Shown: positions 2,683 to 40,601, numbered from the stretch's first letter. The stretch is DNA of 40,601 bases from a virus (IMGVR_UViG_3300045988_091682), one strand, 5' to 3'. Made by a program: numbers and translations. The notes: a model not told the origin generated them from the sequence alone.

Positions 2683-3771
2683 TCAATACATTTTGCAAGC
2701 AGCTATGATTTCATCCTTATACTTGTAAATATCGTCCAATGATTCAAGCAGGTGTTTCTGTCCCCATTTCTCCACGTTGCAAGTTTCGAGATACTTATTT
2801 GAACTATTGAAATACAGGCGACAGATCGGTTTTCGGTTATTGTCGTCAAGCAGGATTCCGAAATACGACATCGTATCACGGTACTGCACGCGATTAATAT
2901 CGTCGACCTCCGGGTAAAGAATTGACCGAACGATATAAAATCCCTGCAATTCCTCTTCCGTAGTTACGATTCGGTTATCCTCTATTTTTTCTGCCTCATC
3001 CGAAGTTGCGGCCACATCCGCCCCCTGTTCGGTCTTATCGACCTTGTTTTCTACTACCGTATCGGCAGAGATCGCCGATTTAAGGCGTTCATTTATGTAA
3101 TCGTTGGTGTATTGTACAAATGCCTGTTTCACAATCGCGCGGAATTGCCCCATTACAACGTCGTTGAAACGGCCGGGATAAATCGGCCGGGCAAAGTATT
3201 TGACGAACTCGTCGCTGGGATTGTTGATTTCCCGGTCAATGGCATTTCGAATTTCATTTGTAAACTTCAATTCACTGGCGGTGTTGAGAATCGTGTCTAC
3301 ATCGAAATAACTCTTGTGGAACTCACGCAATTTATCGACCTGCGATTCCCGGTATTTCTCCATATTGAATTCGAAGAACGGTTTTTCATCCATCTTGTTT
3401 TTCTCTACCAAGTCGGTATAAAAACGATAGATAATGCCGTTGGTCAGAATACCGAAGCGGGCGTTGGATACATGGAAATAACGAAACAGTTGCCCGTTAT
3501 GCGATGTAAGGTCTTCTTTCCAATGTTTGCACTCAATCAGAATAATCGGCTGGCCGTCTTTATGAATGGCATAGTCGATCTTTTCCCCTTTTTTAATCCC
3601 TAAATCGCAAGTGTATTCGGGGACAACTTCCGTCGGGTCAAATACATCGTATCCGAGGGTTTGAAGAAACGGCATAATGAACGCCGTTTTGGTCGCCTCT
3701 TCGGTTTGGGTATTCTCTTTAAGTTTGATAACCCGTTCACTCAACAGCTTGATTTGATCTTTGAAATCCAT
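2683..3771 (-). CDS. HsdR-N (type I restriction R-subunit N-terminal, PD-(D/E)xK-like) domain protein
   Basis: 362 aa. The N-terminus reads EEATKTAFIMPFLQTLGYDVF...GEKIDYAI...PIILIECK, the typical HSDR_N / Mrr-like nuclease core pattern. The C-terminal domain has unknown function. Confidence 0.6.
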   Translation of the reverse strand: MDFKDQIKLLSERVIKLKENTQTEEATKTAFIMPFLQTLGYDVFDPTEVVPEYTCDLGIKKGEKIDYAIHKDGQPIILIECKHWKEDLTSHNGQLFRYFHVSNARFGILTNGIIYRFYTDLVEKNKMDEKPFFEFNMEKYRESQVDKLREFHKSYFDVDTILNTASELKFTNEIRNAIDREINNPSDEFVKYFARPIYPGRFNDVVMGQFRAIVKQAFVQYTNDYINERLKSAISADTVVENKVDKTEQGADVAATSDEAEKIEDNRIVTTEEELQGFYIVRSILYPEVDDINRVQYRDTMSYFGILLDDNNRKPICRLYFNSSNKYLETCNVEKWGQKHLLESLDDIYKYKDEIIAACKMY

Positions 3772-3783
3772 TTTGATATGTTT

Positions 3784-4305
3784 TTACTGGTTATTGGCAG
3801 ATTGGAAACCCGATTCGAGGGGTACATCTTCAAACTTAACGGCAACCCCGGACGCTTGCCACACAGGGCGTTTGTTTGCATCCAATTCCCGGTAGATTCT
3901 TACACCGATCAAGCCGTTCGCCCCTCGCGTTTTAGCTCTTTCGACAAGCATATCAAGTATTTTATTAGGGGTTATATCATCCGCTGCGCCGGGGCCGAAC
4001 TCCTCTCCGTACTCCATCGCAATCGAGGCAATAGGGAGGTATTTATATGTAGTTTGAGCCTCTGACGGAAAAATCCAAAAACCGCTGTTGATATAATCTG
4101 CATAGTCAACAGAATACCTTACCGTATAGGCTTGGTATGTGCAACACGTCAAACACAAAACGGCGCAAAGTGCGACAATTCTACCAATCCCAAGACGAAG
4201 TATCGGCCCTTTCAGAATCTTCGAGGGGGGGGGGAATTTTATAATCCCTACGCGTCGTAAAACGCAAGCCCCGACAGAGGCGAAGCCCGAAGCAAGTTTT
4301 TTCAT
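3784..4305 (-). CDS. Membrane-anchored or lipoprotein-like protein with a YbjQ/UPF0145-like C-terminal domain
   Basis: The ATG at 4305 (MKKLASG...) lies just downstream of the repressor stop. Features are the hydrophobic segment IVALCAVLCLTCC and a C-terminal RGANGLIGVRIY...ASGVAVKF. A C10 tract encodes FPPP at codons 24-27. Confidence 0.55.
   Translation of the reverse strand: MKKLASGFASVGACVLRRVGIIKFPPPSKILKGPILRLGIGRIVALCAVLCLTCCTYQAYTVRYSVDYADYINSGFWIFPSEAQTTYKYLPIASIAMEYGEEFGPGAADDITPNKILDMLVERAKTRGANGLIGVRIYRELDANKRPVWQASGVAVKFEDVPLESGFQSANNQ
4225..4234 (+). repeat. G10 homopolymer (C10 in the mRNA of 3784..4305)
   Basis: tcgaGGGGGGGGGGaatt, counted directly from the sequence. Confidence 0.9.
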
Positions 4306-4334
4306 AAATTCAAGGGTTAAAGTGTTTATATTAA

Positions 4335-4988
4335 CTATTTTAAGGACATGCACATCAATACGCGATACATTCCGTAAATATCGGCGAATCGCACGGCAAA
4401 AGGCTGATATTTCGGGTCGGGATTCAAAGAATAGCACTGTACGGAATCGTCATCGTCCCCCTTCCGCACCTCCTTTATAACACTACCGTTACAAGTATCG
4501 AGGACATAAACCCGCCCCCATTCGATGAACGCCGTTTCGTCGACCTTTTTAATAAGAACCTGCGCCCCGTTCGGATAGTCCGGGGCCATGCTGTCACCCG
4601 TTACCGTCATAACAAAATCAACGTCACGAATCGGCGTGACAACGCGCTCACACTCGGCAATCTTAATTGACACAACAAAGTCGTTAAGTGTCCCGCCTTG
4701 CGCCGCGAGAGGCAGCAGCGGAGCAGTAAATACATTCGGCGTTTCGGCTTTGTTTGTCGCCGTCGAGGTCTTCACAGAGCCGCCGCGGGTCATAGGCCCA
4801 ACGCCCGTCATCAACCATTCTGTATTAAGGTCAGGATAACGTGATGCAATGCGTTGTAGTTTATCCGGCTGAACAGATACGCGGATTGTGTTCACATAAC
4901 CAATCGTCAGCCCTGCTTCGCGCTCAAAAGCACGCACAGAACGCTCTTTCGATTTAGCGAACTTGACAAGTCTTTCTTTTATAGTCAT
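4335..4988 (-). CDS. cI/LexA-like repressor (HTH plus S24 peptidase domain)
   Basis: 217 aa. The N-terminal HTH has TEWLMTGVG. The C-terminal part has the VTGDSMAPDYPNG Ser-nucleophile motif and a downstream LIKK lysine. The gene is divergent from the early operon. Confidence 0.85.
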   Translation of the reverse strand: MTIKERLVKFAKSKERSVRAFEREAGLTIGYVNTIRVSVQPDKLQRIASRYPDLNTEWLMTGVGPMTRGGSVKTSTATNKAETPNVFTAPLLPLAAQGGTLNDFVVSIKIAECERVVTPIRDVDFVMTVTGDSMAPDYPNGAQVLIKKVDETAFIEWGRVYVLDTCNGSVIKEVRKGDDDDSVQCYSLNPDPKYQPFAVRFADIYGMYRVLMCMSLK

Positions 4989-5159: not shown

Positions 5160-5456
5160 ATGAACACGAAATTTTTTAACCGAGCCGTAGGTCATGCAAA
5201 CATCCTCGTCGGGGATAACATCGACCAACTCGTCAGCGAGGCCATGAACCACGTTGCCCGCCTCCGGGATTACTACCGGAACGACATCCGTCAATCGTTG
5301 CAGGATTTAGGCGCAGCCTGCGTATCGAATCATTCCACAGGAGACAAGAGGAGTTTGTTTGTTGTTCTCGACAAAGAGCATCAAGTATCGGACGAGGATT
5401 GGCAAAACATGGCCATACGTGACATCGAAAGGAAATACAACATCCGAATCCTATGA
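5160..5456 (+). CDS. Hypothetical early protein
   Basis: 98-aa ORF. It is the first gene of the rightward operon. Confidence 0.55.
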   Translation: MNTKFFNRAVGHANILVGDNIDQLVSEAMNHVARLRDYYRNDIRQSLQDLGAACVSNHSTGDKRSLFVVLDKEHQVSDEDWQNMAIRDIERKYNIRIL

Positions 5457-5752
5457 AAACGGCGACCAATCTCAACAGCGCGACGGGCAGCGTGCTCGGA
5501 CTTGCCGAACTTATCGGAATAAGCCACGGTAAAATGCGCACTCTTATCGGCCACCTATGCGCCGCAGGACTGATAACGAGTGAATCATCGAACAAAGGAA
5601 CGGCATTTCGACTTACTGACCGCGGCGAACAGGTATTGAATTTCACATCGGCAGACGTCGACGATTTTTCGACCATTCTGTCGGTTATCCAACGGCCTTT
5701 CGGCATAGCTATTTTACATATTATTAAACAACTAACGCACAACGCACTATGA
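5453..5752 (+). CDS. Putative winged-helix DNA-binding protein
   Basis: 99 aa. LGLAELIGISHGKMRTLIGHLCAAGLITSE...FRLTDRGEQVL resembles a MarR-type wHTH. Start and stop overlap the neighbouring genes. Confidence 0.5.
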   Translation: MKTATNLNSATGSVLGLAELIGISHGKMRTLIGHLCAAGLITSESSNKGTAFRLTDRGEQVLNFTSADVDDFSTILSVIQRPFGIAILHIIKQLTHNAL

Positions 5753-6207
5753 AAAATAACATCGAAAATGGGATTTACATCCCCGAGGAACAGCGCAACC
5801 TTATCCCCGTCGACGAATGGGTGAAGCGCGAAGATCCGACCACAGCGCAGACCGTTGTACTTGTAACCGATTTCGGAATGCTCGAAATCGCCAAAGAAGA
5901 CCTACCGGGCGGATTCAATTTCGAGGGCGCACAGAAAGCTGCCGCCGAATACCGCAAGGGCTTCCGCTGCCCGACCCGGCATGAAGCAATTGAAATGTAC
6001 GACGCCCGGTTCCGTGGCCTCGACGAAGCGTTCAAGAAGATCGGCGGCGAACCCGCAACGACTATCGGCTGGACGAGCGAAGCCGACCCCGGCCCGGAGT
6101 ACAATTCCACCGGCGCGTTCGTCTACGACGGCCTCACGGGCGGCGTGAACATCTACAACAAGGGTAACGCGTTCGCCGTGCGTCCGGTTTCCGCTTTCAA
6201 GAAATAG
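5749..6207 (+). CDS. DGR variable protein 2: small leaderless DUF1566/C-type-lectin-fold-like protein with a C-terminal VR
   Basis: 152 aa. FRCPTRHEAIEMY corresponds to the W(R/W)LP(T/S)xxE motif of target 1. The C-terminus EYNSTGAFVYDGLTGGVNIYNKGNAFAVRPVSAFKK is encoded by a TR-matching VR. Confidence 0.8.
   Translation: MKNNIENGIYIPEEQRNLIPVDEWVKREDPTTAQTVVLVTDFGMLEIAKEDLPGGFNFEGAQKAAAEYRKGFRCPTRHEAIEMYDARFRGLDEAFKKIGGEPATTIGWTSEADPGPEYNSTGAFVYDGLTGGVNIYNKGNAFAVRPVSAFKK
6097..6193 (+). repeat. DGR variable repeat VR2
   Basis: 97 nt align without gaps to TR 37057..37153. There are 16 substitutions: 15 at TR adenines and one T-to-G (tat to ggt). Confidence 0.8.
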
Positions 6208-6225
6208 TTTCACAGTTCAATCATT

Positions 6226-6249
6226 CCCGCGCCCTTTACGGGGCGCGGG
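6226..6249 (+). promoter_or_regulatory. GC hairpin downstream of VR2
   Basis: 9-bp stem cccgcgccc / gggcgcggg with loop tttacg. It is preceded by attcccgcgcc, the same flank as downstream of VR1. Confidence 0.6.
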
Positions 6250-7105: not shown

Positions 7106-7267
7106 ATGAAAACCAAAATTTTAGCTATCCCGTGGTGGCTGTCGCTGGTCGCGCTCGGCGGAGCAATGGATGCAGACCCGATTTCATGGGTCGCCGTTGC
7201 CGTAACATTCGCCGCGTTCGTAACACTTTCCGCAGCCATAATCAGAGAACAAAGGAAAACCGCATAA
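7106..7267 (+). CDS. Small membrane protein
   Basis: The internal ATG of ORF 7058..7267 gives MKTKILAIPWWLSLVALGG...VAVAVTFAAFVTLSAAII, with two hydrophobic segments. It starts right after the previous stop. Confidence 0.45.
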   Translation: MKTKILAIPWWLSLVALGGAMDADPISWVAVAVTFAAFVTLSAAIIREQRKTA

Positions 7268-7296
7268 TAACCAATCATCACAAAACGCACGATGCT

Positions 7297-9366
7297 ATGA
7301 ACATCAAGATCAAATCAATTACCCTGCGCAATTTCAAAGGACTGCGCGACGTATCGTTCGATTTCGACGGCCGTAACGCCACGATCATAGGCGACAACGG
7401 TACGGGAAAGACAACCATTTTCGACGCCCTGACATGGGTATTGTTCGGCAAGGATTCGCACAACAGCACCGACATCGACATCAAGACAATAGACGCCACG
7501 GGCGAACCTATGCACCGCGCCGAGCATTTCGTCGAGGTGGCATTGGACGTGGACGGCTCCGCACAGACGCTGCGCCGCACGTACCGCGAGATTTGGAGCA
7601 AGCCGCGCGGGTCGTCCGACCTGCGATTCGTCGGACACGAAAGTGCGTTTGCCGTCAATGGCGTGGAGGTCGGAACCAAGGCGGCATACGACAAAATCAT
7701 TTCGGAATGGATCAACGACAATGTATTCCGGATGCTGACCGACCCGATGTATTTCAATACTCGCGTCGATTGGAAAGGCCGTCGCGCTGCCCTTTTAGCC
7801 CTCGTCGGGGATAACATCGACCGCACGGCGATACAGGCGCAGTTTGCCGACCTGCTCGCCGAAATGAACGGCGAACCCCTCGCAGATTTCAAAGCGCGGC
7901 TTGCGACCGAGAAGCGCAAGAACAAAAAGGAACTCGAAACATTCGGCCCAAAGATCGAAGCATATCAAAACACGATGCCCCCGGCGGAAGACTACGCCGC
8001 GCTGGAACAGGAGATCACGCAGCGCGAATCCGTGGCCGCAAACGAGATCGCAGCGTACCAGCGGCAAATCGACGCACTCGACACGCAGATCGCCGACGCA
8101 TCGAAAATAGACGAGGAAACGCAGGCCGCCCACGACCGAAGACTGAAAAAGGTGCTCGACATCAAAAAGTCGTTGTCCGATCATATCGACGCTCGACTGA
8201 CCGCGGCCCGTCGGTATAACTCCGACCGCGACGCGGCCATCATGGACGCACAGGCGAAAGCGGATTCAATTCTGCGCGAAATCGAGAAAACCGAAACGAC
8301 GGCAAACTCGAAACGGGACACCCTCGAAGCCTGCGTAAAGAAGCAGGCGAATATCAAATCGGCACTCGATAGCATGCGTGCGAAATACGAGGCTGAGAAA
8401 AAGGCGGCATTTGAATACGTCGACGCGACCACCTGCTACGCTTGCGGCCAGCCGTTACCCGCCGCAACCATCGAAGAAGCCCGCCGCGCGGCCCGCGAGA
8501 GCTTCGAGAAGCACCAGCGCGAAATACTCGACAAGTTGATCGCCGACGCCAATCTCGAAAAGGATACTTACAGCAAGTTAACAAAGCCGGTTTCGACCAC
8601 CGAACAGGAAATCGCAATGCTCGATCAACGCCTATCGCAACTGCGCGCGGAACATCACGCTGTGACGCTGGCTATCACAACCGCGAAAGACGTTCCCGCA
8701 ATCGACCTCGAAACGGAGGAAGAACAGGCGAAATTATCTTCCGAATACCGGAAGCTCTCCGACGAGCTTACCCGCGCGCAAACCGCCCTCGAAGCCTCGG
8801 CAACCACGAAAATCACGGCCGCTACGCTCACGGCACGCCGCCGGGATATATCCGCACAGATCGACACTGTGCGTCAGAACCTCGCAACCGCAACCACCGA
8901 CCTGCGCCGTCGCCTTGCCAATAAGGAGCGCGCCGCAGAGGTACAACGCCTTATAGACGAGGCCAAAGAATCGGAAAAGAAGATCGCCGAACGTATCGCC
9001 GAACTCGAACGCCTCGAATTCGCAGCGGCGGCCTACACGAAAGCGAACATCGAAGCCGTCGAAGCAGCGATAAATTCGCGGTTCAACCTCGTGCGCTGGC
9101 GAATGTACGAACAGACCATCGAGGGCGCGGACGTCGAAACATGCGTCGCCACCATCGACGGCGTGCCGTTCAACTCGCTGAACAGCGCCGGGCAGGTACT
9201 CGCCGGACTTGACATCATCCGCACGTTCTGCCGCTACTACGGCGCAACCGCGCCCGTCTTCATCGACAACGCCGAAAGTATTTCGCAGACCGATTTTGCG
9301 CTCGATTCGCAGGTCATTCGTCTGCAAGTGGTCGAGGGTGCTGCACTCGAACTTAAAACAGCGTAA
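7297..9366 (+). CDS. Rad50/SbcC-like SMC-family ATPase
   Basis: The start is set at MNIKIKSITLRNFKGL. Features are Walker A GDNGTGKTT, a long central coiled coil interrupted by CYAC (a CxxC hook-like motif), and C-terminal VFIDNAES (Walker B / D-loop). Confidence 0.75.
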   Translation: MNIKIKSITLRNFKGLRDVSFDFDGRNATIIGDNGTGKTTIFDALTWVLFGKDSHNSTDIDIKTIDATGEPMHRAEHFVEVALDVDGSAQTLRRTYREIWSKPRGSSDLRFVGHESAFAVNGVEVGTKAAYDKIISEWINDNVFRMLTDPMYFNTRVDWKGRRAALLALVGDNIDRTAIQAQFADLLAEMNGEPLADFKARLATEKRKNKKELETFGPKIEAYQNTMPPAEDYAALEQEITQRESVAANEIAAYQRQIDALDTQIADASKIDEETQAAHDRRLKKVLDIKKSLSDHIDARLTAARRYNSDRDAAIMDAQAKADSILREIEKTETTANSKRDTLEACVKKQANIKSALDSMRAKYEAEKKAAFEYVDATTCYACGQPLPAATIEEARRAARESFEKHQREILDKLIADANLEKDTYSKLTKPVSTTEQEIAMLDQRLSQLRAEHHAVTLAITTAKDVPAIDLETEEEQAKLSSEYRKLSDELTRAQTALEASATTKITAATLTARRRDISAQIDTVRQNLATATTDLRRRLANKERAAEVQRLIDEAKESEKKIAERIAELERLEFAAAAYTKANIEAVEAAINSRFNLVRWRMYEQTIEGADVETCVATIDGVPFNSLNSAGQVLAGLDIIRTFCRYYGATAPVFIDNAESISQTDFALDSQVIRLQVVEGAALELKTA

Positions 9367-9370
9367 CGAC

Positions 9371-9640
9371 ATGGCACAGATCGTCAGCAACGAAAAAGGA
9401 TTCAAGGTTATCCACGTCGAAACGCTCGACATGCGGGTCATCGGAAGCCCCGCGAAATGCGACTACTGCACGGCGGATATGGCGACCCCCGACGGCGGCT
9501 ATTACATCGCCGTGCTGAATAAGATATACTGTCCGCAATGCTATAAACGCTGGCTTTCCGAGGCACGCCGCCACCCGCAGGACGCCCCTATCGAAGCCCG
9601 AAACTACAACACGTATCGTCAAATCTTTTATTTCAAATAA
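9371..9640 (+). CDS. Hypothetical Cys-rich protein
   Basis: The internal ATG gives MAQIVSNEKG..., with CDYC...CPQC, two CxxC pairs. Confidence 0.5.
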   Translation: MAQIVSNEKGFKVIHVETLDMRVIGSPAKCDYCTADMATPDGGYYIAVLNKIYCPQCYKRWLSEARRHPQDAPIEARNYNTYRQIFYFK

Positions 9641-9642
9641 CT

Positions 9643-10626
9643 ATGGCACAGAATAGCAATCAGAACGGAGCGCAGACCGCCCCGGCGACGCAATCGAAAG
9701 CGATTGCCGCAATGAAAGATGAACTTGCGAACAGCGTCCTGCGACGCATCGAGGAGCTGCAAGCGAACGGCGGGCTGGTCGTCCCGAAAGACTACGCCGT
9801 AACTAACCAAATGAACCTTGCATGGCTTCGTATCTCCGAAATGCTTTGGGAGGATTCCAACAAAGTACAACACCCGGTTTTGGAGGTCGTAACCAAAGCA
9901 TCGGTGGCAAATTCGCTGCTCGATATGGTGCTGCAAGGCATGGACATCCAAAAGAAGCAAGGATACTTTATCCCGGTCAAAAACAAGGCGTCGGGGCAGC
10001 TCGAACTGACGTTCTGGCGATCGTATTTCGGCGACGAGAAACTGGCCCGCGCACAGGGTATGAAGAAAGTCCGTTCGGTCGTCGTTTACGAGGGTGACGA
10101 TTTCGAATACATGTACACGGAAGACGGCGAAACCAAAGTAACGAAACACGTTCCGAGCCTGTCGAGAATCGACAAAGACAAGATCGTCGCCGTCTACGCC
10201 GTAACGACTATGTCCGACGGCTCGCACTCGACGACAATCAAGACGATGACCGAAATCCGGCAAGCATGGATGCAGGGCGCAATGCGGGGCAACTCGCCTG
10301 CGCACCGAAATTTCACCAGCGAAATGGCAGGGCGAACGGTCGAGCGTTCCGCCATGAAGCACATTATCAACTCGTCATCCGACGCATGGCTGTTGAGCGA
10401 AGACGAGAAAGAACGCCGCGTAACGAACGAAACGGCGGCCGCGCCCGCCGGGGCAAATATCGAAGATGCGAAATTCGAGGAGGTCGCCCCAGCCGCAATC
10501 GCAGCACAATCGGCCACACCCGCCGAAACGATGCCGCCGATCCCTACGCCGACGCCCGTTCCGCGCGAGGAGGTAACCGAAGAGGCAGCCCCCGCGGCCA
10601 TTGAAGACGACCCGTTCAACGTGTAA
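9643..10626 (+). CDS. recT: RecT-family single-strand annealing protein
   Basis: 327 aa. The core region (GYFIPVKNK...LTFWRSYFG...VVVYEGDDFEY) resembles RecT, followed by an acidic, Pro/Ala-rich tail. Genomic context is an ATPase and a nuclease-like hydrolase. Confidence 0.65.
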   Translation: MAQNSNQNGAQTAPATQSKAIAAMKDELANSVLRRIEELQANGGLVVPKDYAVTNQMNLAWLRISEMLWEDSNKVQHPVLEVVTKASVANSLLDMVLQGMDIQKKQGYFIPVKNKASGQLELTFWRSYFGDEKLARAQGMKKVRSVVVYEGDDFEYMYTEDGETKVTKHVPSLSRIDKDKIVAVYAVTTMSDGSHSTTIKTMTEIRQAWMQGAMRGNSPAHRNFTSEMAGRTVERSAMKHIINSSSDAWLLSEDEKERRVTNETAAAPAGANIEDAKFEEVAPAAIAAQSATPAETMPPIPTPTPVPREEVTEEAAPAAIEDDPFNV

Positions 10627-10630
10627 CCCG

Positions 10631-11380
10631 ATGAAGCTGCACGTCATATCATCATCGTCGGCTGGTAACTGCTACGTTTTGGAGAGCGAAGCGTCTGCGC
10701 TCGTTATCGAGTGCGGCGCATCGCCCGAAACGATGTTTGCCAGGACTGGGATCGACGCCCGAAAGTTCGTCGGTGCAGTAGTAACGCACGAGCACGGCGA
10801 CCACGCGGCCCACATCGGCAAATACGCCGACCGGGCAATCGACGTCTATGCCTCGCAGGGAACGCTCGCGGCGTGTCGCATCGACAAAGCGCACCGCGCG
10901 CACACATTACGACCGATGCAGTCCGTCATGGTCGGCGATTTCGTCGTCCGGGCGTTCGACGTGAAGCACGACGCAGCGGAACCGTTCGGGTATATTATCG
11001 AACACGAGGAATGCGGAAAAGTGCTATTTGCTACCGACACGCATTTTATCCGGTACAACTTCAAATCCCTGCGACTGAATCATATTCTGATCGAGGCGAA
11101 CTATTCACAAGAGGAGCTGGACGATAATATCGCCCGCGGGACGATGAACCCGGCACAGGCAGCGCGCGTACGAACGTCGCATCTATCAATCGACGCGGCG
11201 TGTGATATGGTAAAGGCGAACGAAACGGCGGAACTTTCGACGGTCGTTCTACTGCACCTTTCGAACGCAAACAGTCTTGCCGATGCTTTTGCCGCGCAAA
11301 TGCGCAAAACAGCCCATTTCGCGCGTGTTTTCGTCGCAGACAAGGGTTTAATCGTCAAACTGAACAAAAGCGAAATTTAA
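10631..11380 (+). CDS. MBL-fold metallo-hydrolase
   Basis: The start is set at MKLHVISSSSAGNCYV. The THEHGDH motif (HxHxDH) is present. Confidence 0.75.
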   Translation: MKLHVISSSSAGNCYVLESEASALVIECGASPETMFARTGIDARKFVGAVVTHEHGDHAAHIGKYADRAIDVYASQGTLAACRIDKAHRAHTLRPMQSVMVGDFVVRAFDVKHDAAEPFGYIIEHEECGKVLFATDTHFIRYNFKSLRLNHILIEANYSQEELDDNIARGTMNPAQAARVRTSHLSIDAACDMVKANETAELSTVVLLHLSNANSLADAFAAQMRKTAHFARVFVADKGLIVKLNKSEI

Positions 11381-34104: not shown

Positions 34105-35166
34105 ATGTATGACATCAAATTAGGGCAGGGATGCGGCATCAAAGCCACGATGTTGACCCCGGCAGGCGGCGTCTGCGATCTGCGCCGAGCACGGTATATC
34201 GCAGCGTCGCTCGTACTGGTATCCGGCGCAACGATGAATTGCGAAGACGTCACGTTCAATGAGGTGACGAACGCTGTTTATGTGCGCCTGCTCGGAACCC
34301 GCGAACTGACCGCCACCGGGCGCTATGGCATCATCTTCAACGTCAAACTGGAAGACAAGACGATGTATTCGACGCCCGTTGTGTGGTTCGCGGAAGTCAA
34401 AGAGAACGCCCCGACAGGCTATCACGAACTGACGCTATCGCTGTCGCTCACCGTCGTAAATTTCCCGGACAATGTCTCCTATACGGGAGCGTCGCCAAAG
34501 ATCGGCGACAAAAATACGTGGCTGGTCTACGACGACAATCTCAACGCGTATGTCGATACGGGTATCGAGGTCGGATATGCGAACCTGTTGTCACGCTACG
34601 ACGGTAAGTTTGCCGAAATCGTCGTCCCGTGTACCGAGGCAACCAACGCGGCCGCAGCGGCCACGGTCGCCGCAAACAACGCGGCCGCAGCAGCCAATAG
34701 CGCAGCAGGAAGTGCATCGACGGAGACAACAGCAGCGAATACAGCCGCAGGCAAGGCCAACGCCGCAACGACGGCCGCAAATAACGCAGCAACAGCGGCC
34801 AACACAGCCACGGGTAAGGCAAACGAGGCGGCGACAGCAGCAAATAATGCAGCGGAATCCGCACAGCGCGTCGTCGACACCTACGACGACGTTATCAATA
34901 CGCTCGCGCACTCCGACTGCACCCTCGACGAGCGGGTCGAGGCACTCGAAAAGGCGCTTATAGCCGTCTTGTCGGGTGCTGTCGTGATTCCCAAATTGCA
35001 GATCAAGGAATTGAACGTATGGGGCAATAACAGCCTTGCCCCCGTCGGCGACGGCGCACCGACGAAAGCCCCGGACAGAGCCGGGCAGTTCTACATCGAC
35101 AAGACCGCCCGCGCGCTCTATTTCTCAACGGGTAACGCGGCCGTGTCAGACTGGAAAATTCAATAA
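34105..35166 (+). CDS. Fibre-like protein with Ala/Asn/Thr-rich repeats
   Basis: 353 aa. The central region has imperfect 22-aa repeats, with the unit AANTA(A/T)GKAN(A/E)A(A/T)TAANNAA occurring twice. Confidence 0.6.
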   Translation: MYDIKLGQGCGIKATMLTPAGGVCDLRRARYIAASLVLVSGATMNCEDVTFNEVTNAVYVRLLGTRELTATGRYGIIFNVKLEDKTMYSTPVVWFAEVKENAPTGYHELTLSLSLTVVNFPDNVSYTGASPKIGDKNTWLVYDDNLNAYVDTGIEVGYANLLSRYDGKFAEIVVPCTEATNAAAAATVAANNAAAAANSAAGSASTETTAANTAAGKANAATTAANNAATAANTATGKANEAATAANNAAESAQRVVDTYDDVINTLAHSDCTLDERVEALEKALIAVLSGAVVIPKLQIKELNVWGNNSLAPVGDGAPTKAPDRAGQFYIDKTARALYFSTGNAAVSDWKIQ

Positions 35167-35178
35167 TGCAAACGGAAT

Positions 35179-36525
35179 ATGGCACAGGTTAACAAATACG
35201 CAGATCGGGCCGCTTATACGGCCGACGCGAAACGTCTTTCAACGAAATCGGCCGTTTCGTTCATCGAAAATGAAACGACAACGATTTACGACGGTGTGAA
35301 TACCGTCGTCGGAAAATCGGCTGCCGCCATCGGGGATCTCGCCGTTTTCGATAAAACGGACGGGGTTATCAAATACATCAAAAGCGCAACGATTGCCAAG
35401 GCGCAGATTCCAGCAAACCTTGTACCGCTGGCCGTCGTCTATGCGCGACAAGGTGAACAGCTATTGATCGTATCGCTCGACCATGTTTCGGGCAGCATCC
35501 GCTGGGCACATACCTACGAGGTTGCATTGTCGGGTTTCGATCTCGCTGCGGGCGGCACAATCGTGTTGAAGCTCGGTTCCGACCCTGCCGCCGCAGAGGT
35601 GTCGATAGCGTATACCGCAGGCGCAACGCTCGCGGATGTTGCATCGGCTATCAACGCGAAACTCAAAGGTGGGACACCCAATTACTCCTCGACGGATTAT
35701 GGCGGATGGGCGGCGACTGCGGCGGACAATTTCGTCGTGATGGGTTCGAACACGTATAACGCCTCCCGTGCGGCGATTGCCGTTGTTGGCGGTTGTCAGA
35801 TCGCAAGGACACCGGAAGACATTAACTACCAAACAACGTTGACGGGGGTGTTGATCGAGGGGTCAACCGAATATGTCCGCCGCAACAACGGCGTTAATTC
35901 GTCGTTTGCGGGCTGTAATCCCGAAAAATTCCTGCAATACTATTCGGCCAACGGAACCGATACCACAGGAATCAAACCCGGAAGTAGCACCATAATTCGG
36001 GAAAGCGCTTTTACGGAAGAGGCCAACCCGGAACTGGTCGCCGCCTATCCAACCTACCGGGATTATCTGTTCGGAGAACATTTGCTGCAATATCCCGCAG
36101 CCTACGGCGCGCTGCTTCGTGATGGCAAGGCCAACACGCACCTGATCGGCGGTCTGCGGTTCGTCGACATCCACGGCGAAAGCGTTCCCCGTTATCCGGC
36201 CGCTGCGGCCGCTCTCGACTACGGCGTCACGGTCGAGGGCGCAACTACCGGACTGGAAGCGGGCGCATGGTGGCTGCCGTCCGTCGATGAAGTCTACCTG
36301 CTCATGCACGACCGCGTGCTAACGTCCGCCGACCGGGAAAGCGACCCTGTAAACCGCACGCTGTCGCGCCTCGGTAAGACGACCTGCTACGGATCGGGTT
36401 ATTATCCGTGGACATCGTGCGAGTACAATTCCATCAACGCGTTCTTCTACAACGGCAACGCGGGCAACGTGAACAACAACAACAAGTATAGCACGCTCGC
36501 CGTGCGTCCGGTTTCCGCTTTGTAA
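35179..36525 (+). CDS. DGR variable protein 1: putative receptor-binding/tail-fibre protein with a DUF1566/C-type-lectin-fold-like C-terminus
   Basis: 448 aa. The motif GAWWLPSVDEVYLLM is present. The C-terminus EYNSINAFFYNGNAGNVNNNNKYSTLAVRPVSAL is encoded by VR1. Confidence 0.85.
   Translation: MAQVNKYADRAAYTADAKRLSTKSAVSFIENETTTIYDGVNTVVGKSAAAIGDLAVFDKTDGVIKYIKSATIAKAQIPANLVPLAVVYARQGEQLLIVSLDHVSGSIRWAHTYEVALSGFDLAAGGTIVLKLGSDPAAAEVSIAYTAGATLADVASAINAKLKGGTPNYSSTDYGGWAATAADNFVVMGSNTYNASRAAIAVVGGCQIARTPEDINYQTTLTGVLIEGSTEYVRRNNGVNSSFAGCNPEKFLQYYSANGTDTTGIKPGSSTIIRESAFTEEANPELVAAYPTYRDYLFGEHLLQYPAAYGALLRDGKANTHLIGGLRFVDIHGESVPRYPAAAAALDYGVTVEGATTGLEAGAWWLPSVDEVYLLMHDRVLTSADRESDPVNRTLSRLGKTTCYGSGYYPWTSCEYNSINAFFYNGNAGNVNNNNKYSTLAVRPVSAL
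36419..36517 (+). repeat. DGR variable repeat VR1
   Basis: 99 nt align without gaps to TR 37055..37153. There are 6 substitutions, all at TR adenines. Confidence 0.9.
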
Positions 36526-36547
36526 AAACAGTTTTCAGTTTTTAATT

Positions 36548-36580
36548 CCCGCGCCGCATCGCGTCGGCGTGCGGTGCGGG
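36548..36580 (+). promoter_or_regulatory. GC hairpin downstream of VR1
   Basis: 10-bp stem cccgcgccgc / gcggtgcggg (one G-T pair) with a 13-nt loop. It is preceded by attcccgcgcc. Confidence 0.6.
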
Positions 36581-36596
36581 TTCGCAAGTTAGACCT

Positions 36597-36991
36597 ATGG
36601 CAAAGAAATTATCTATCCTCGACAAAACGTTCCAACTGGCGTTGCTCCTGCATCGCCGGACGGCGGAATTCAATCGCAAATACAAATTCACTATCGGCGA
36701 CCGCATCGACGTTGTGGCAGAGGAAGCGCAGGAAATGATACTGCGGGCGAATCATCAAACCGACCCGAAACGGGCCGCAAAATCATCTACGATTTCGTCC
36801 TGCGTATTGACACCCTGTCGCTAAAACTGCGGATGGCCGTTGCGCTGGGTCTGATGAGTGACGACGCAAAAGCACAATGCGATATGCTTATCGCAAAGAT
36901 TAAAGACGAGGCGAGGGGTTGGCGAAACTATTTTCTGCGTGGCGAGGGTGTCGTCGGCAAGAGCAACGGGCCGTCGGCAGAGAGCCTATAA
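36597..36991 (+). pseudogene. avd: Avd (DGR accessory variability determinant, four-helix-bundle family) with a frameshift
   Basis: The N-terminal half is MAKKLSILDKTFQLALLLHRR...ILRANHQTDPKR. The C-terminal half, read by hand in the other frame, is IIYDFVLRIDTLSLKLRMAVALGLMSDDAKAQCDMLIAKIKDEARGWRNYFLR.... The frames meet near the A4 run at 36779..36782. Length is 395 nt, one nt short of a multiple of 3. Confidence 0.7.
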
Positions 36992-37041
36992 TTATTATTT
37001 TGAAAAGGGTTTGCATACTATCATTCATAGTTATACCGACA

Positions 37042-38439
37042 ATGCAAAAAACTGGCGAGTACAATTCCAACAACGCGTTCATCTACAACGGCAACACGGG
37101 CAACGTGAACAACAACAACAAGTATAACACGAACGCCGTGCGTCCGGTTTCCGAATTTCAAGGTAATGTAGACCCTTTCGCCTCGTTCTATAAATCAATG
37201 CGGGCGGCATATCGCCTATGCTTAAAAAACAAAGTGCATACCGCTAACGCGATACGCTTTTGGCTTGATGAAGAAAGCGAGCTTGTCGCGCTCGCCCGCG
37301 AGGTGTTCAACTGCGAATATGTCCCGCGGCAATCCATCGCATTTATCGTTACGAAACCATGCCTGCGCGAAGTGGTAGCCGCCGATTTCCGCGACCGAAT
37401 CGTGCAGCACTATATCGTCATGCGCCTCGAAGCTCTTTTCGAGGAATGCGGAACACTCGACGATAACATGTTCAGTTGCCGCGTCGGGAAAGGCAACCTT
37501 GCGGCCATACAGGCCCTACAACAGCAGATATTCCACCAGTCGAAAGGTTATACCGCCGACTGTTATGTGGCAAAATTCGACCTGCAATCATTCTTTATGA
37601 GCATCGACAAACGCCGTCTTTACGACGAGTTGGTCGCATTGGTCGCCAAACGCTACGAGGGATGGGATAAGGATACGCTGTTGTATCTTATCCGCGTCGT
37701 TACGCTGCATAATCCGCAGGACAACGCCGTGCGGAAAACTCCACTTTGCGATTGGGCTGACCTGCCGCGCTCGAAGAGCCTCTACAATGTCGATTGGTTC
37801 CTCGGTTTAGCCATCGGGAACCTCACGTCGCAATCCGACGCGAATTTCTACAACGCACCCGCGATGCGGTGGATGCGCTCCGTTGGCCTCGCTCCTGTGA
37901 ACTACGTCGATGATTTCGCATTCGTCGTCCGGGATAAGGCATCGTTTCTTACGGCCATGCCTTATATTCGAAACTATTTCGCCGCAGAACGGGGACTGAC
38001 GATGCACCCGCGGAAATTCTACCTGCAACACTACTCGAAAGGCATCAAGTTTTTAGGTGCGGTTATCAAATACAACCGCGTCTACACGAACAACCAAACC
38101 GTCGCACGGTGTTTCGGAAAGATTCACTACTACAACGAAGCGTGCCGACACAGTAGCCGCCGCAAGGCCCGGCATGTCGAGAAGCTGGCGACAATCCTAA
38201 ACTCCTATTTGGGGTTGATGCGGCATTTCGATACGTTCAACATTCGTAAACGCATCGCCGCAGAGGTCGGAACCGTATGGTGCGACTATATCCGTTTCGA
38301 CGACGACATCACGACGGCAACGGTCGTCAAACATTTCCGGCAACGGGAAATCTGCAAATACAACGTCCGCAAACAACGCAGACGCGATTTATTCACACTC
38401 AAAAACTTACTCAACGATGGAAACACAGCAGCAAATTAA
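37042..38439 (+). CDS. DGR reverse transcriptase (start uncertain: ATG 37042 or ATG 37198)
   Basis: The catalytic motif is NYVDDFAFVV (YxDD). The DGR-RT signature is LAIGNLTSQSDANFYN (xGNxxSQ). The conserved N-terminal region FASFYKSMRAAYRLCLKNK begins upstream of the ATG at 37198. Confidence 0.9.
   Translation: MQKTGEYNSNNAFIYNGNTGNVNNNNKYNTNAVRPVSEFQGNVDPFASFYKSMRAAYRLCLKNKVHTANAIRFWLDEESELVALAREVFNCEYVPRQSIAFIVTKPCLREVVAADFRDRIVQHYIVMRLEALFEECGTLDDNMFSCRVGKGNLAAIQALQQQIFHQSKGYTADCYVAKFDLQSFFMSIDKRRLYDELVALVAKRYEGWDKDTLLYLIRVVTLHNPQDNAVRKTPLCDWADLPRSKSLYNVDWFLGLAIGNLTSQSDANFYNAPAMRWMRSVGLAPVNYVDDFAFVVRDKASFLTAMPYIRNYFAAERGLTMHPRKFYLQHYSKGIKFLGAVIKYNRVYTNNQTVARCFGKIHYYNEACRHSSRRKARHVEKLATILNSYLGLMRHFDTFNIRKRIAAEVGTVWCDYIRFDDDITTATVVKHFRQREICKYNVRKQRRRDLFTLKNLLNDGNTAAN
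37055..37153 (+). repeat. DGR template repeat (TR)
   Basis: 99 nt with 33 adenines and 11 AAC codons in the VR reading frame. It is the donor-like copy, because the positions where VR1 and VR2 differ are A in TR. Confidence 0.9.
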
Positions 38440-38677: not shown

Positions 38678-39162
38678 ACCCGCTAACCGAACAATCGACA
38701 ATGACCGAAACCGTCGTGCGGAACTCGGCGACAGCGATATTGACGTCGATTTTCTATCAAGCGCTTGCGGATTCGATCATTTGGTTGGTCGTTGCAGCTG
38801 TGGTTATCGTCTGCGATCTCTTTTTCGGCTGTGAAGCAGCCCGAAAAAGGGGTGAGCGTGTGCGCATTTCGCGGGCAGTTCGCCGCACGGTCAACAAAAT
38901 GTGCGAATACCTGTGCTGGGTCATGCTCGGCATTACTATTTCGATAGGATTTGCCGCCGACTGGCTGAAATACCTGATTTTCGCCATCATTTACGGTAAT
39001 GAACTATCGTCGTGCTTGTCTAACTATTTTGCAGCAAAAGGCAAGCGGATAACATTTAACGTCTTTTCGTTGCTGGGGCGACGGCTCGGTATTGACGAAC
39101 TCGAACAATGCCACATCGAGGAAGACAACCGGGCTGAAAAAGTAAATAAAGACACATATTAA
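38674..39162 (+). CDS. Putative holin
   Basis: 162 aa with 3-4 hydrophobic segments (IIWLVVAAVVIVCDLFFG, YLCWVMLGITISIGF, YLIFAIIYGNEL). It lies upstream of the endolysin. Confidence 0.6.
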   Translation: MNPLTEQSTMTETVVRNSATAILTSIFYQALADSIIWLVVAAVVIVCDLFFGCEAARKRGERVRISRAVRRTVNKMCEYLCWVMLGITISIGFAADWLKYLIFAIIYGNELSSCLSNYFAAKGKRITFNVFSLLGRRLGIDELEQCHIEEDNRAEKVNKDTY

Positions 39163-39174
39163 ATCGGATTCGAT

Positions 39175-39450
39175 ATGAATTACATTTTGAAAAAGGCCCT
39201 CGAAATGGCCGCAGTTTTGGAAAAAGTGAGCGACTTTTTCCTGTTCAAGTCGAACCGCATTCTGCACCTGCTCGGATGCCTTATCGGTTCAGCTTTACTC
39301 GGCTGGGAATTTGGCGTCGGCGCAGGATTGACGGCTGAAATCAAAGATATGCAAAGCGGCGGACGCTGGGACTGGCTCGATATTGCCGCCGACGCTATCG
39401 GTACGCTGGTCGGCGAGATCGTACATTTCGCAATCTTCAAACGCTGGTAG
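39175..39450 (+). CDS. Small membrane protein in the lysis cassette
   Basis: 91 aa with hydrophobic segments. Confidence 0.5.
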   Translation: MNYILKKALEMAAVLEKVSDFFLFKSNRILHLLGCLIGSALLGWEFGVGAGLTAEIKDMQSGGRWDWLDIAADAIGTLVGEIVHFAIFKRW

Positions 39451-39452
39451 GT

Positions 39453-39860
39453 ATGGCACAGCATTTCACTCTTTCCGAATTGCTCCACTCTGACACGGCG
39501 GAAGCAAGGGGAATCCAGAACACGCCGCCACACGACGTTCTCCGACGCCTGAATTACCTAATGGATAACTGCCTCGACCCAATCCGTCGGCTATGGGGCA
39601 AACCTATCGGCGTAAACAGCGGGTATCGGTCGCCAGCCCTCAATGCTGCCGTCGGAGGCGTGGCGACCAGCCAGCACGTCAAAGGCGAAGCCGCTGATAT
39701 AACGACGGGAACGGTCGAGGGGAACAAGCAACTATTCGACATGATCTGCGCAAGCGATATTTCGTTCGACCAACTTATCGACGAACGCAATTTCCGCTGG
39801 CTTCACATTTCCTGTAAAATGGGAGGCATCGGTAATCGTCGTGCTATCCTGCATTTGTAA
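39453..39860 (+). CDS. Peptidase M15-family endolysin
   Basis: 135 aa. SGYRSPALNAAVGGVATSQHVKGEAADI and WLHIS correspond to the Zn-ligand H..D...H pattern of the M15 family. Confidence 0.75.
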   Translation: MAQHFTLSELLHSDTAEARGIQNTPPHDVLRRLNYLMDNCLDPIRRLWGKPIGVNSGYRSPALNAAVGGVATSQHVKGEAADITTGTVEGNKQLFDMICASDISFDQLIDERNFRWLHISCKMGGIGNRRAILHL

Positions 39861-39864
39861 GCCT

Positions 39865-40383
39865 ATGAAAAGATACTATTTCGCAATAGTGGCAGCCGTT
39901 CTACTTTGCGCGTGTGCATCCACGCGCAACACCTCGCGTTCATCCACACAGGAGCGCGTCGAAGAGCGGGCCGAATCGGAGCGGCAAACCTCAACGCAGG
40001 AGCAGACGGAGGAGCAGCGCGACGTCGTAACGATTTCGAAAACCACGACGGAAACGAAATCGACGACAACCATCTACGATACGAGCAGCCCCGCTGCCGA
40101 CAGCTTGGGAATCCCGCCGCCCCAGCAGACGACCACAACGGAAACGAAAACCACAAACACGACGGCAACCGTCGATAAATCCGTTATTCGTCAGATCGTC
40201 GACGAGCAATTACGCGAAGCCGCCAACGAACAAACCACGACGAACAAACAGGAAGACACAAGCACGGAAGAGATCAAAGAGGATTCGACACCGAAGAACC
40301 TGCGTTGGCTCGGCATCATTGCAATCTGCACAACTGTCATTATGGGATGTTTTTTCGTACTCCGTTTTGTCGGTCGAAAATAA
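39865..40383 (+). CDS. Unimolecular-spanin candidate (N-terminal lipoprotein signal plus C-terminal transmembrane domain)
   Basis: The start is set at MKRYYFAIVAAVLLCAC (lipobox-like). A Thr/Glu/Gln-rich linker follows. The C-terminal segment is WLGIIAICTTVIMGCFFVLRFV. It is the last gene of the lysis cassette. Confidence 0.55.
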   Translation: MKRYYFAIVAAVLLCACASTRNTSRSSTQERVEERAESERQTSTQEQTEEQRDVVTISKTTTETKSTTTIYDTSSPAADSLGIPPPQQTTTTETKTTNTTATVDKSVIRQIVDEQLREAANEQTTTNKQEDTSTEEIKEDSTPKNLRWLGIIAICTTVIMGCFFVLRFVGRK

Positions 40384-40485: not shown

Positions 40486-40546
40486 TATTTTTCACCTCGA
40501 TTCGCAATTTGCTGAATATAGGGTTTATACGTTAGATAAATACAAG

Positions 40547-40601
40547 GTTTCCTAAACATTGGGGCAGAGCGGAACACGACATTCGGGCGGAACTATATAC
40601 A
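40547..40601. repeat. 55-bp terminal direct repeat, right copy
   Basis: Identical to 1..55. Confidence 0.95.

Follow-up and report, generated by a model that had tools for sequence, protein, structure and literature searches.

The 40,601-nt viral sequence IMGVR_UViG_3300045988_091682, referred to here as the window (the whole stretch of DNA that was analysed), contains at positions 35179–38439 a locus that an earlier note, made from the sequence alone, had described as a complete diversity-generating retroelement (DGR) with one target gene. This raises the question of whether the locus is indeed a DGR, which genes it diversifies, and whether the copy in the window is still able to do so. Our study indicates with high confidence that it is a DGR of the Bordetella phage type, in which one template repeat (TR) serves two target genes and of which this particular copy has most likely been frozen by a lesion in avd (accessory variability determinant). 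The order target, avd, TR and reverse transcriptase (RT) was found as described. However, avd is split by a 1-nt deletion and is not intact here, and the cassette in the window is therefore not complete; in addition, a second target site lies at 6097–6193, outside that interval. The RT, the TR and both target open reading frames (ORFs) are intact, and avd is the broken component.

Template and variable repeats

A repeat search of the window returned a single 99-nt direct repeat of 94% identity, formed by the TR (37055–37153, plus strand) and a variable repeat (VR1, 36419–36517, plus strand), and base-by-base tabulation reproduced the ungapped alignment previously claimed for the pair. VR1 differs from the TR at six positions (TR 37070, 37081, 37096, 37127, 37132 and 37133) and the TR base is an adenine at all six, for which the chance expectation from base composition is P ~1e-3. 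The codon changes that result (AAC>ATC, ATC>TTC, ACG>GCG, AAC>AGC and AAC>CTC) are exactly those listed beforehand, and recounting gave the same 33 adenines and 11 AAC codons in the VR frame of the TR. Homology between the two copies ends abruptly at both edges. VR1 makes up the C-terminal 33 codons of a 448-aa ORF, target gene 1 (35179–36525, plus strand), with 5 nt between the end of the repeat and the TAA stop. The theoretical repertoire of the TR amounts to ~2.8e19 peptides, and AAG is its sole codon able to become a stop.

The second target was found by scanning the whole window with the TR, each A being treated as a wildcard, which revealed a third copy at ~6095 on the same strand. This repeat, VR2 (6097–6193, plus strand), aligns to the TR without gaps over 97 nt and has 16 mismatches, of which 15 fall on TR adenines (P ~9e-8). 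VR2 forms the 3′ end of target gene 2 (5749–6207, plus strand), which encodes a protein of 152 aa. On the linear map 31 kb separate it from the TR; measured round the circular genome, VR2 is ~9.5 kb downstream of the TR.

Variation across samples

A comparison between samples took the place of the read mapping proposed in the earlier note. The comparison set consisted of 25 IMG/VR loci and two contigs of Alistipes metagenome-assembled genomes (MAGs), all found by means of the RT protein, with RTs 96–100% identical to that of the window and with DNA outside the repeats 97–99.6% identical. Of 25 TR copies from independent assemblies, 20 matched that of the window exactly. Another four, belonging to a 96% sister clade, carried two G>A changes (G50A and G76A) that the VRs of the sister clade also have, as is predicted by one-way transfer from TR to VR. 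The remaining copy, in L017, stands at the start of a contig and resembles a VR.

The variable repeats behaved differently from this template. Among 18 contigs, 15 alleles of VR1 were seen, and 29 of the 33 A sites varied, compared to 3 of the 64 non-A sites. The changes comprised 176 A>N (A>G 109, A>T 55, A>C 12) versus seven others; six of those seven follow the sister-clade TR, and two of the three varying non-A sites are the sister-clade TR changes themselves. The count for VR1 is not biased by the wildcard search, because every locus spanning VR1 was recovered. For VR2, a search with the 152-aa protein added 48 loci, and only those close enough to share the TR were counted. These gave 26 alleles in 31 contigs, with variation at 31 of the 33 A sites versus 11 of the 64 non-A sites and 338 A>N changes versus 23 others, the non-A sites being mostly confined to one allele or tracking the sister-clade TR.

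The same pattern was visible in the proteins. Alignments of the targets showed variation packed into the AAC-templated residues, and homologues of target 1, 68–98% identical, differed mainly in the VR residues. Clusters of the proteins at 90% identity were large, with 14,780 distinct sequences in that of the 448-aa target (P0121) and 9,044 in that of the 152-aa target (P0001). At least nine contigs end <100 nt from VR1, and contig breaks at DGR variable repeats are known assembler behaviour at hypervariable loci (PMC8008677).

Some contigs showed unexpected junctions at the repeats. In L015/L028 (IMGVR_UViG_3300029578_000309) and L026 (Alistipes MAG CALUNH010000034.1) the VR2 gene is joined to sequence from downstream of the TR, with crossovers that differ within the repeat and with 31 kb skipped, and in L009 window position 6234 is joined to 35364. 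These junctions may be either assembly chimeras formed via the repeats or real deletions through recombination between VR2 and the TR.

Reverse transcriptase

The RT gene encodes 413 aa from the ATG at 37198 (37198–38439, plus strand) and matches Pfam RVT_1 (E 1.5e-10). Its ORF is open upstream through the TR, which is in frame with it, and gene callers place the start at the ATG at 37042 (465 aa, with the TR inside); the ATG at 37198 gives the better fit to the alignment with PDB entry 8ub7. The YVDD and IGNLTSQ motifs reported for this ORF are present in its translation, as NYVDDF and LAIGNLTSQ, and correspond to the YxDD box and the IGxxxSQ motif. Among solved structures, the 328-aa chain of 8ub7 matches best by far (E 9e-13), its IGSLTSQ aligning to IGNLTSQ; other solved RTs were far more distant, with E 0.05 for a group II maturase and 0.4 for retron-type RTs. 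We take 8ub7 to be the Bordetella phage bRT, the database entry being titled only ‘Reverse transcriptase’. The isolated phages with the most similar RTs are the Bacteroides uniformis DGR phages F1, F2 and F4 (Bacuni; PMC8143477), at 42–44% identity over 85% of the protein. These are lytic siphoviruses of a different host genus and have no nucleotide similarity to the phage studied here. The matches thus agree with the DGR type that had been assigned to the RT.

The avd gene and its frameshift

The avd gene (36597–36991, plus strand) is interrupted by a 1-nt deletion after position 36779. The region consists of a 75-aa ORF (36597–36824) and a 52-aa ORF in a different frame (36833–36991), and three-frame translation showed that the C-terminal part of Avd continues in the −1 frame from ~36782 to 36991. 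When the spacer between VR1 and the TR was aligned, 15 of 15 related loci had an extra C after 36779 and an intact ORF of 131 aa, and the deletion was therefore specific to the window among the 16 aligned sequences. The repaired 131-aa product spans positions 4–106 of 107 of Pfam bAvd (E 1.6e-4) and 1–102 of 104 of NCBIfam DivGenRetAVD (E 7.7e-6), and a relative that is 67% identical carries a precomputed PF22296 match. Its isoelectric point (pI) is 9.5, and Avd proteins are reported to have a pI of 9.5 +/- 0.7 (PMC5758913). A comparison of the repaired protein with PDB sequences gave nothing meaningful. The proposal that an Avd-type gene lies between target and TR is thus upheld for the repaired product, although in the window the gene is present as two ORFs and its profile scores are below cut-off.

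The frameshift is not an assembly error, because it is recurrent in other samples. The truncated 75-aa product was found on contigs of four assemblies, two of which have the VR1 allele of the window, and it occurs in at least three independent samples and on two single-nucleotide polymorphism (SNP) backgrounds. In L079 the C deletion is on the other SNP haplotype, and in L078 a different 1-nt deletion, of the neighbouring A at a GCACAAA site, yields an identical 75-aa product. The protein database (P0244–P0275) further holds avd frameshifts at four other sites and five in-frame deletions, as well as a protein in which the Avd N-terminus is fused to the RT C-terminus, with loss of the TR and of most of the RT. 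This variety of avd and RT loss alleles indicates that loss of DGR function is recurrent in the phage population and that the window is one case of it. The intact form is by far the commonest, with 616 members in its cluster versus 1–3 for the truncated 75-aa forms. A programmed recoding site at the frameshift was considered and rejected, as the relatives carry a plain intact ORF. Most likely, the copy in the window is unable to home unaided, and the VR1 and VR2 it carries date from earlier rounds and are now frozen.

Proposed mechanism and elements 3′ of the repeats

For the lineage in general, we propose that a TR-containing RNA is copied by the RT together with Avd and that the adenines of the TR are miscopied at random in the process. 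The resulting cDNA would then replace the two homologous 3′ gene ends, VR1 in the gene of the 448-aa protein and VR2 in that of the 152-aa protein, so that each round of homing could re-draw up to 20 codons per target protein.

All three repeats end in an identical A-free, GC-rich segment of 19 nt, GCCGTGCGTCCGGTTTCCG, which resembles an initiation of mutagenic homing (IMH) element and lies at 36499–36517 in VR1, 6175–6193 in VR2 and 37135–37153 in the TR (plus strand throughout). The flank straight after it is CTTT in both VRs compared to AATTT in the TR. GC-rich hairpins follow the variable repeats, on the same strand: one at 36548–36580, 30 nt 3′ of VR1 (−23.9 kcal/mol, z = −3.7), and the other, found by strand folding, at 6226–6249, 32 nt 3′ of VR2. 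Their 5′ arm, TTCCCGCGCC, is identical after VR1 and VR2, and neither hairpin is followed by a T-run. The equivalent stretch 3′ of the TR folds no better than shuffled sequence (z = −0.1). In diverged relatives the stem of the VR2 hairpin is kept and its loop varies. It is probable that the GCCGTGCGTCCGGTTTCCG segment, the differing flank and the VR-only hairpin together set the direction of transfer from TR to VR.

The ~45 nt 3′ of both VRs (36518–36560 and 6194–6236) were also seen to be alike, following the pattern CTTT..AA..AGTTT.CA.AGTT..AAT..TTCCCGCGCC. Similarity between the two target sites therefore extends 3′ well past the homology to the TR.

Family, fold and role of the target proteins

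The earlier note had given the 448-aa target a C-terminus like DUF1566 or C-type lectin (CLec) domains, with a WWLPSxxE motif. The motif is present, as AWWLPSVDE. Pfam Lcl_C (DUF1566, PF07603) was matched only below its cut-off of 34.9 bits, both by target 1 (E 0.0035, 18.1 bits) and by target 2 (E 0.071, 13.8 bits), and it was matched at E ≤ 0.01 by 9 of 40 homologues of target 1. The assignment was instead sustained by transitive homology through the relatives of target 2. An exhaustive phmmer search with that protein gave 132 representatives, mostly stand-alone proteins of 150–170 aa, and some of the relatives (E 4e-13 to 7e-8) are multi-domain proteins with 3–4 Lcl_C domains scoring 98–156 bits. 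Target 2 is therefore a divergent single DUF1566 domain. Targets 1 and 2 align with each other by profile only over their last ~55 residues, that is, the VR and ~20 residues before it (hhalign probability 98%).

The AlphaFold2 model of target 1 had a predicted local distance difference test (pLDDT) score of <50 over residues 211–448, and the confident part, residues 113–210 only, showed in Foldseek a weak likeness to exposed domains of tail sheaths and flagellins. A Flagellin_IN-like motif was found in the N-terminal half of target 1 in 31 of 40 homologues. Searches of both targets against solved structures, by single sequence and by profile, gave no match to Mtd or others; the one marginal match was to the C-terminus of PDB 8q4e, ‘HbP1’ (E 0.1–0.2), and the literature found on HbP1 concerned only an unrelated human transcription factor.

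Target gene 1 is the last gene of the virion module. It is preceded, in order, by genes for the terminase (19190), a tape-measure-like protein of 953 aa, a protease, a portal-family protein (32434), a DUF6712 protein and a 353-aa protein, and it is followed by the DGR, the holin and an M15 peptidase. The view that the target follows the fibre genes is thus weakly founded: the 353-aa neighbour has only low-scoring matches to tail-fibre PHROGs, confined to an Ala/Asn/Thr-rich segment, and what stands before it are the DUF6712 and portal-family genes. In the 353-aa gene, imperfect tandem repeats of 33 nt and 22 nt (34639–34848) encode that Ala/Asn/Thr-rich segment.

Target gene 2 occupies a different setting. 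It is the third gene of an early operon whose stop and start codons overlap (5160–5456, 5453–5752 and 5749–6207), so that it is translationally coupled to both preceding genes, and it is divergent from the gene of an S24-peptidase, CI/LexA-like repressor (4335–4988, minus strand; Pfam match). The 152-aa protein has no signal peptide, lipobox or hydrophobic N-terminus. When the neighbours of VR2 were screened with PADLOC, generic ABC/SMC-type ATPase matches were the only ones obtained, for the 744-aa protein of the RecT module, and no defence-type neighbour was found. An exact-sequence look-up of the 152-aa protein gave, among the matches listed, contigs of the same MetaHIT run and one NCBI assembly, and that of the window's 448-aa protein gave none on record. 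A related contig, IMGVR_UViG_3300045988_118231 (39,212 nt; L053 and L070), carries two small DUF1566 target genes, 78% and 62% identical to that of the window.

By analogy with characterized phage DGRs, it is plausible that the 448-aa protein is a receptor-binding protein and that its diversification would serve tropism switching, as was also suggested before. For the 152-aa protein we offer a proposal that is speculative and rather improbable as a whole: it may be a non-virion, cytoplasmic, early single-domain protein whose diversification would serve intracellular conflict, e.g. by binding host-defence or competing-phage proteins, with the losses of avd and RT reflecting selection that fixes good variants. 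If this were true, adsorption and an interaction inside the cell would both be tuned by a single TR, and the repeated, independent loss of avd or RT would represent selection turning hypermutation off once a good variant had been found.

Alternative explanations

Several observations weigh against our interpretation or parts of it. Variation at the A sites was established by comparing contigs of different samples, and VR2 of the window has a single mismatch on a TR base other than adenine (T37123>G). The class of the RT was judged by pairwise and profile matches. Repaired Avd scored under the curated cut-offs of both bAvd and DivGenRetAVD, and the two targets are likewise sub-threshold for Lcl_C. 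The AlphaFold2 models of the targets, made from alignments of 33 and 40 close homologues, reached pLDDT scores of only 42 (target 2) and 51 (target 1), and Foldseek with the target 1 model returned no match at E ≤ 1e-3. The hairpins might be no more than transcription terminators. Lastly, avd is present in 74% of DGRs and absent from 26% (PMC5758913), and because about a quarter of DGRs are without it, its loss may not abolish activity.

These points bear unequally on the explanations that compete with a dual-target, avd-frozen DGR. That the repeats are ordinary paralogous gene ends diverging by mutation or gene conversion, beside an RT from an unrelated retron or group II element, is exceedingly improbable. 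An NCBIfam group II RT/maturase profile does match the RT weakly (60 bits versus a cut-off of 300), but group II and retron RTs are much more distant from it than the 8ub7 chain is, and an avd homologue lies between target and TR. Moreover, undirected mutation could not produce variation at 29–31 of 33 A sites against an invariant TR, and this A-restricted variation with an invariant template across samples effectively refutes the explanation. It is less improbable, though still unlikely, that the copy in the window remains active despite its frameshift, whether by −1 slippage, by Avd supplied in trans from a co-resident phage, or by a need for Avd that is only partial. The deletion yields GCA-AAA-T, and a −1 slip on AAA would give full-length Avd with only a Q>K change; however, four adenines do not form a canonical slippery heptamer. 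The recurrence of one and the same 75-aa product through two different 1-nt deletions speaks for retained activity, as do the DGRs without avd and the finding that avd, TR and brt are functional in trans (PMC5758913). Against this, the Bordetella phage system depends strictly on Avd (PMC5758913), the intact gene predominates in the clusters, and the other frameshifts, the in-frame deletions and the avd::RT deletion look like plain loss of function and not like conserved recoding.

The role of the 448-aa target is the part of the interpretation for which a competing explanation has the most weight. The protein may be a decoration or adhesin on the virion surface that binds mucus or gut ligands, with no switch of tropism, and we regard this as possible, if somewhat doubtful. 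The genes that precede it, of the portal family, DUF6712 and a weakly fibre-like protein, include no clear baseplate or tail-tip module, and the sheath- and flagellin-like residues 113–210 and the Flagellin_IN motif of its homologues are consistent with such a role, as are published two-target DGRs of gut phages, among whose targets are putative adhesins for cells of the intestine or the immune system (PMC10743442). However, the gene ends the structural block, before the DGR and the lysis genes, and this is the usual site of a tail-fibre DGR target (PMC8008677, PMC12629997); in addition, receptor binding is the function of Mtd of phage BPP-1, the phage DGR target that has been studied experimentally (PMC5758913). 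Judged from its location and from this analogy, the 448-aa protein is a plausible candidate for receptor binding.

Comparison with known systems

Among the closest known systems is the mtd-avd-TR-brt cassette of Bordetella phage BPP-1, with which the element described here shares the order target, avd, TR and RT. Both have a VR at the 3′ end of the target gene, A-specific differences and an AAC-rich TR, a GC-rich and A-free repeat end with an inverted repeat 3′ of the VR (PMC5758913), an RT with IGxxxSQ and YxDD, and a basic Avd (131 aa here versus 128 aa in BPP-1). They differ in that BPP-1 has one target, of the Mtd class, whereas the two targets found here are of the DUF1566 (CLec2) class and have no sequence similarity to Mtd. 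The hairpin is situated 30–32 nt past the VR, compared to immediately after it in BPP-1, and, unlike in BPP-1, the TR is in frame with the RT ORF, 44 nt from the first plausible RT start, and avd is frameshifted in the window copy. Target-avd-TR-RT is the commonest DGR architecture, and non-adjacent targets at <50 kb are common in phage-associated DGRs (PMC5758913). The targets also resemble those of ‘category d’ (CLec2), e.g. LdtA of Legionella, in which the VR overlaps a weak DUF1566/Lcl_C match; about half of that category are short DUF1566-only proteins, to which the 152-aa target can be compared, and the rest are N-terminally extended like the 448-aa target (PMC5758913). LdtA, however, is a bacterial surface lipoprotein, whereas the 152-aa protein is phage-encoded and is without signal or lipobox.

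Dual-target DGRs with one structural and one distal target have already been published for gut Bacteroidota phages, and the locus adds a well-supported but unremarkable member to a known kind of system. Quimbyvirus (‘Quimbyviridae’) likewise has one TR and two targets of the C-type-lectin class, one after structural and tail-fibre genes and the other distal and inferred to be non-structural, and its A-specific variation was shown through comparison of near-identical genomes (PMC8008677). Its genome is larger (~75 kb versus 40.5 kb) and its RT is split over three frames, compared to a single ORF here; its distal target is found among methyltransferase, nuclease and tRNA-ligase genes on the opposite strand, whereas that of the present phage is the third gene of an early operon beside the repressor (PMC8008677). 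In a cultured collection of temperate phages of gut Bacteroidota, DGRs occur in 43% of phage species, and four of the phages have a structural VR and a distal second VR in the arrangement seen here; in these the second VR is near counter-defence genes such as a DNA methyltransferase, and no Alistipes phage is described (PMC12629997).

Our literature search found no paper on this Alistipes phage and no description of a DGR phage for the genus Alistipes. Similarly, megablast of the whole cassette against GenBank phages gave zero nucleotide matches, and tblastn of the 448-aa target against GenBank phage records gave zero matches. The locus represents a phage DGR working in the human gut, in the host genus Alistipes, and provides a natural data set in the form of dozens of independent alleles of two targets from one invariant template. 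The 152-aa DUF1566 target in the early, lysogeny-control region is a third and compact case of distal, non-structural phage DGR targets, and the avd-null and RT-deleted alleles that exist beside intact ones allow a natural comparison of frozen with active hypermutation. Neither the minimal target nor the natural knock-outs alter the understanding of the DGR mechanism.

The phage genome and its setting

The virus is a temperate Alistipes (Bacteroidota) phage of ~40.5 kb with a tyrosine integrase, in line with the temperate Bacteroidota phage that had been proposed, and it is abundant in IMG/VR and in MAGs. Positions 1–55 of the window are identical to 40547–40601 over 55 nt, and IMG/VR contigs, including L008 and L012, continue from ~40546 directly into position 1. 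On the basis of these identical ends and crossing contigs, the assembly is circular and comprises 40,546 bp. The 55-nt end duplication probably stems from an overlap left by assembly at k=55.

A complete tRNA-Arg(CCT) gene at 89–161 adjoins the tyrosine integrase gene (243–1643), and this tRNA was the sole RNA family matched in an Rfam scan of the window. The phage end GGTTTCCTAAAC (40545–40557) is the anticodon stem-loop of the phage tRNA-Arg(CCT), and in the Alistipes MAG contig L027 (7340–7400) the right prophage junction consists of GGTTTCCTAAAC joined to the 3′ half of a tRNA that belongs to the host and differs from that of the phage. It would seem that the anticodon loop of a host tRNA-Arg is the integration site and that the phage supplies a replacement copy of its own.

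Between the integrase and the repressor lie two minus-strand genes (2683–3771 and 3784–4437), one for a PD-(D/E)XK/HSDR_N-domain protein and one for an uncharacterised protein of 217 aa, neither of which was matched by PADLOC. This interval is the usual site of prophage-expressed exclusion or ‘moron’ genes. The early region at 7132–11380 is a recombination module that encodes the 744-aa SMC/AAA_15-type ATPase, a RecT-family annealase and a protein of the metallo-beta-lactamase fold.

At the opposite end of the window, many relatives (L007–L009, L012–L014, L016 and L020–L023) have unrelated sequence in place of the stretch 39132–39906, which lies between the genes of the holin and a small membrane protein and contains the M15 peptidase gene. 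This replacement is an endolysin cassette swap; the sequence found in its place in L079 encodes a Glyco_hydro_108/PG_binding_3 lysin.

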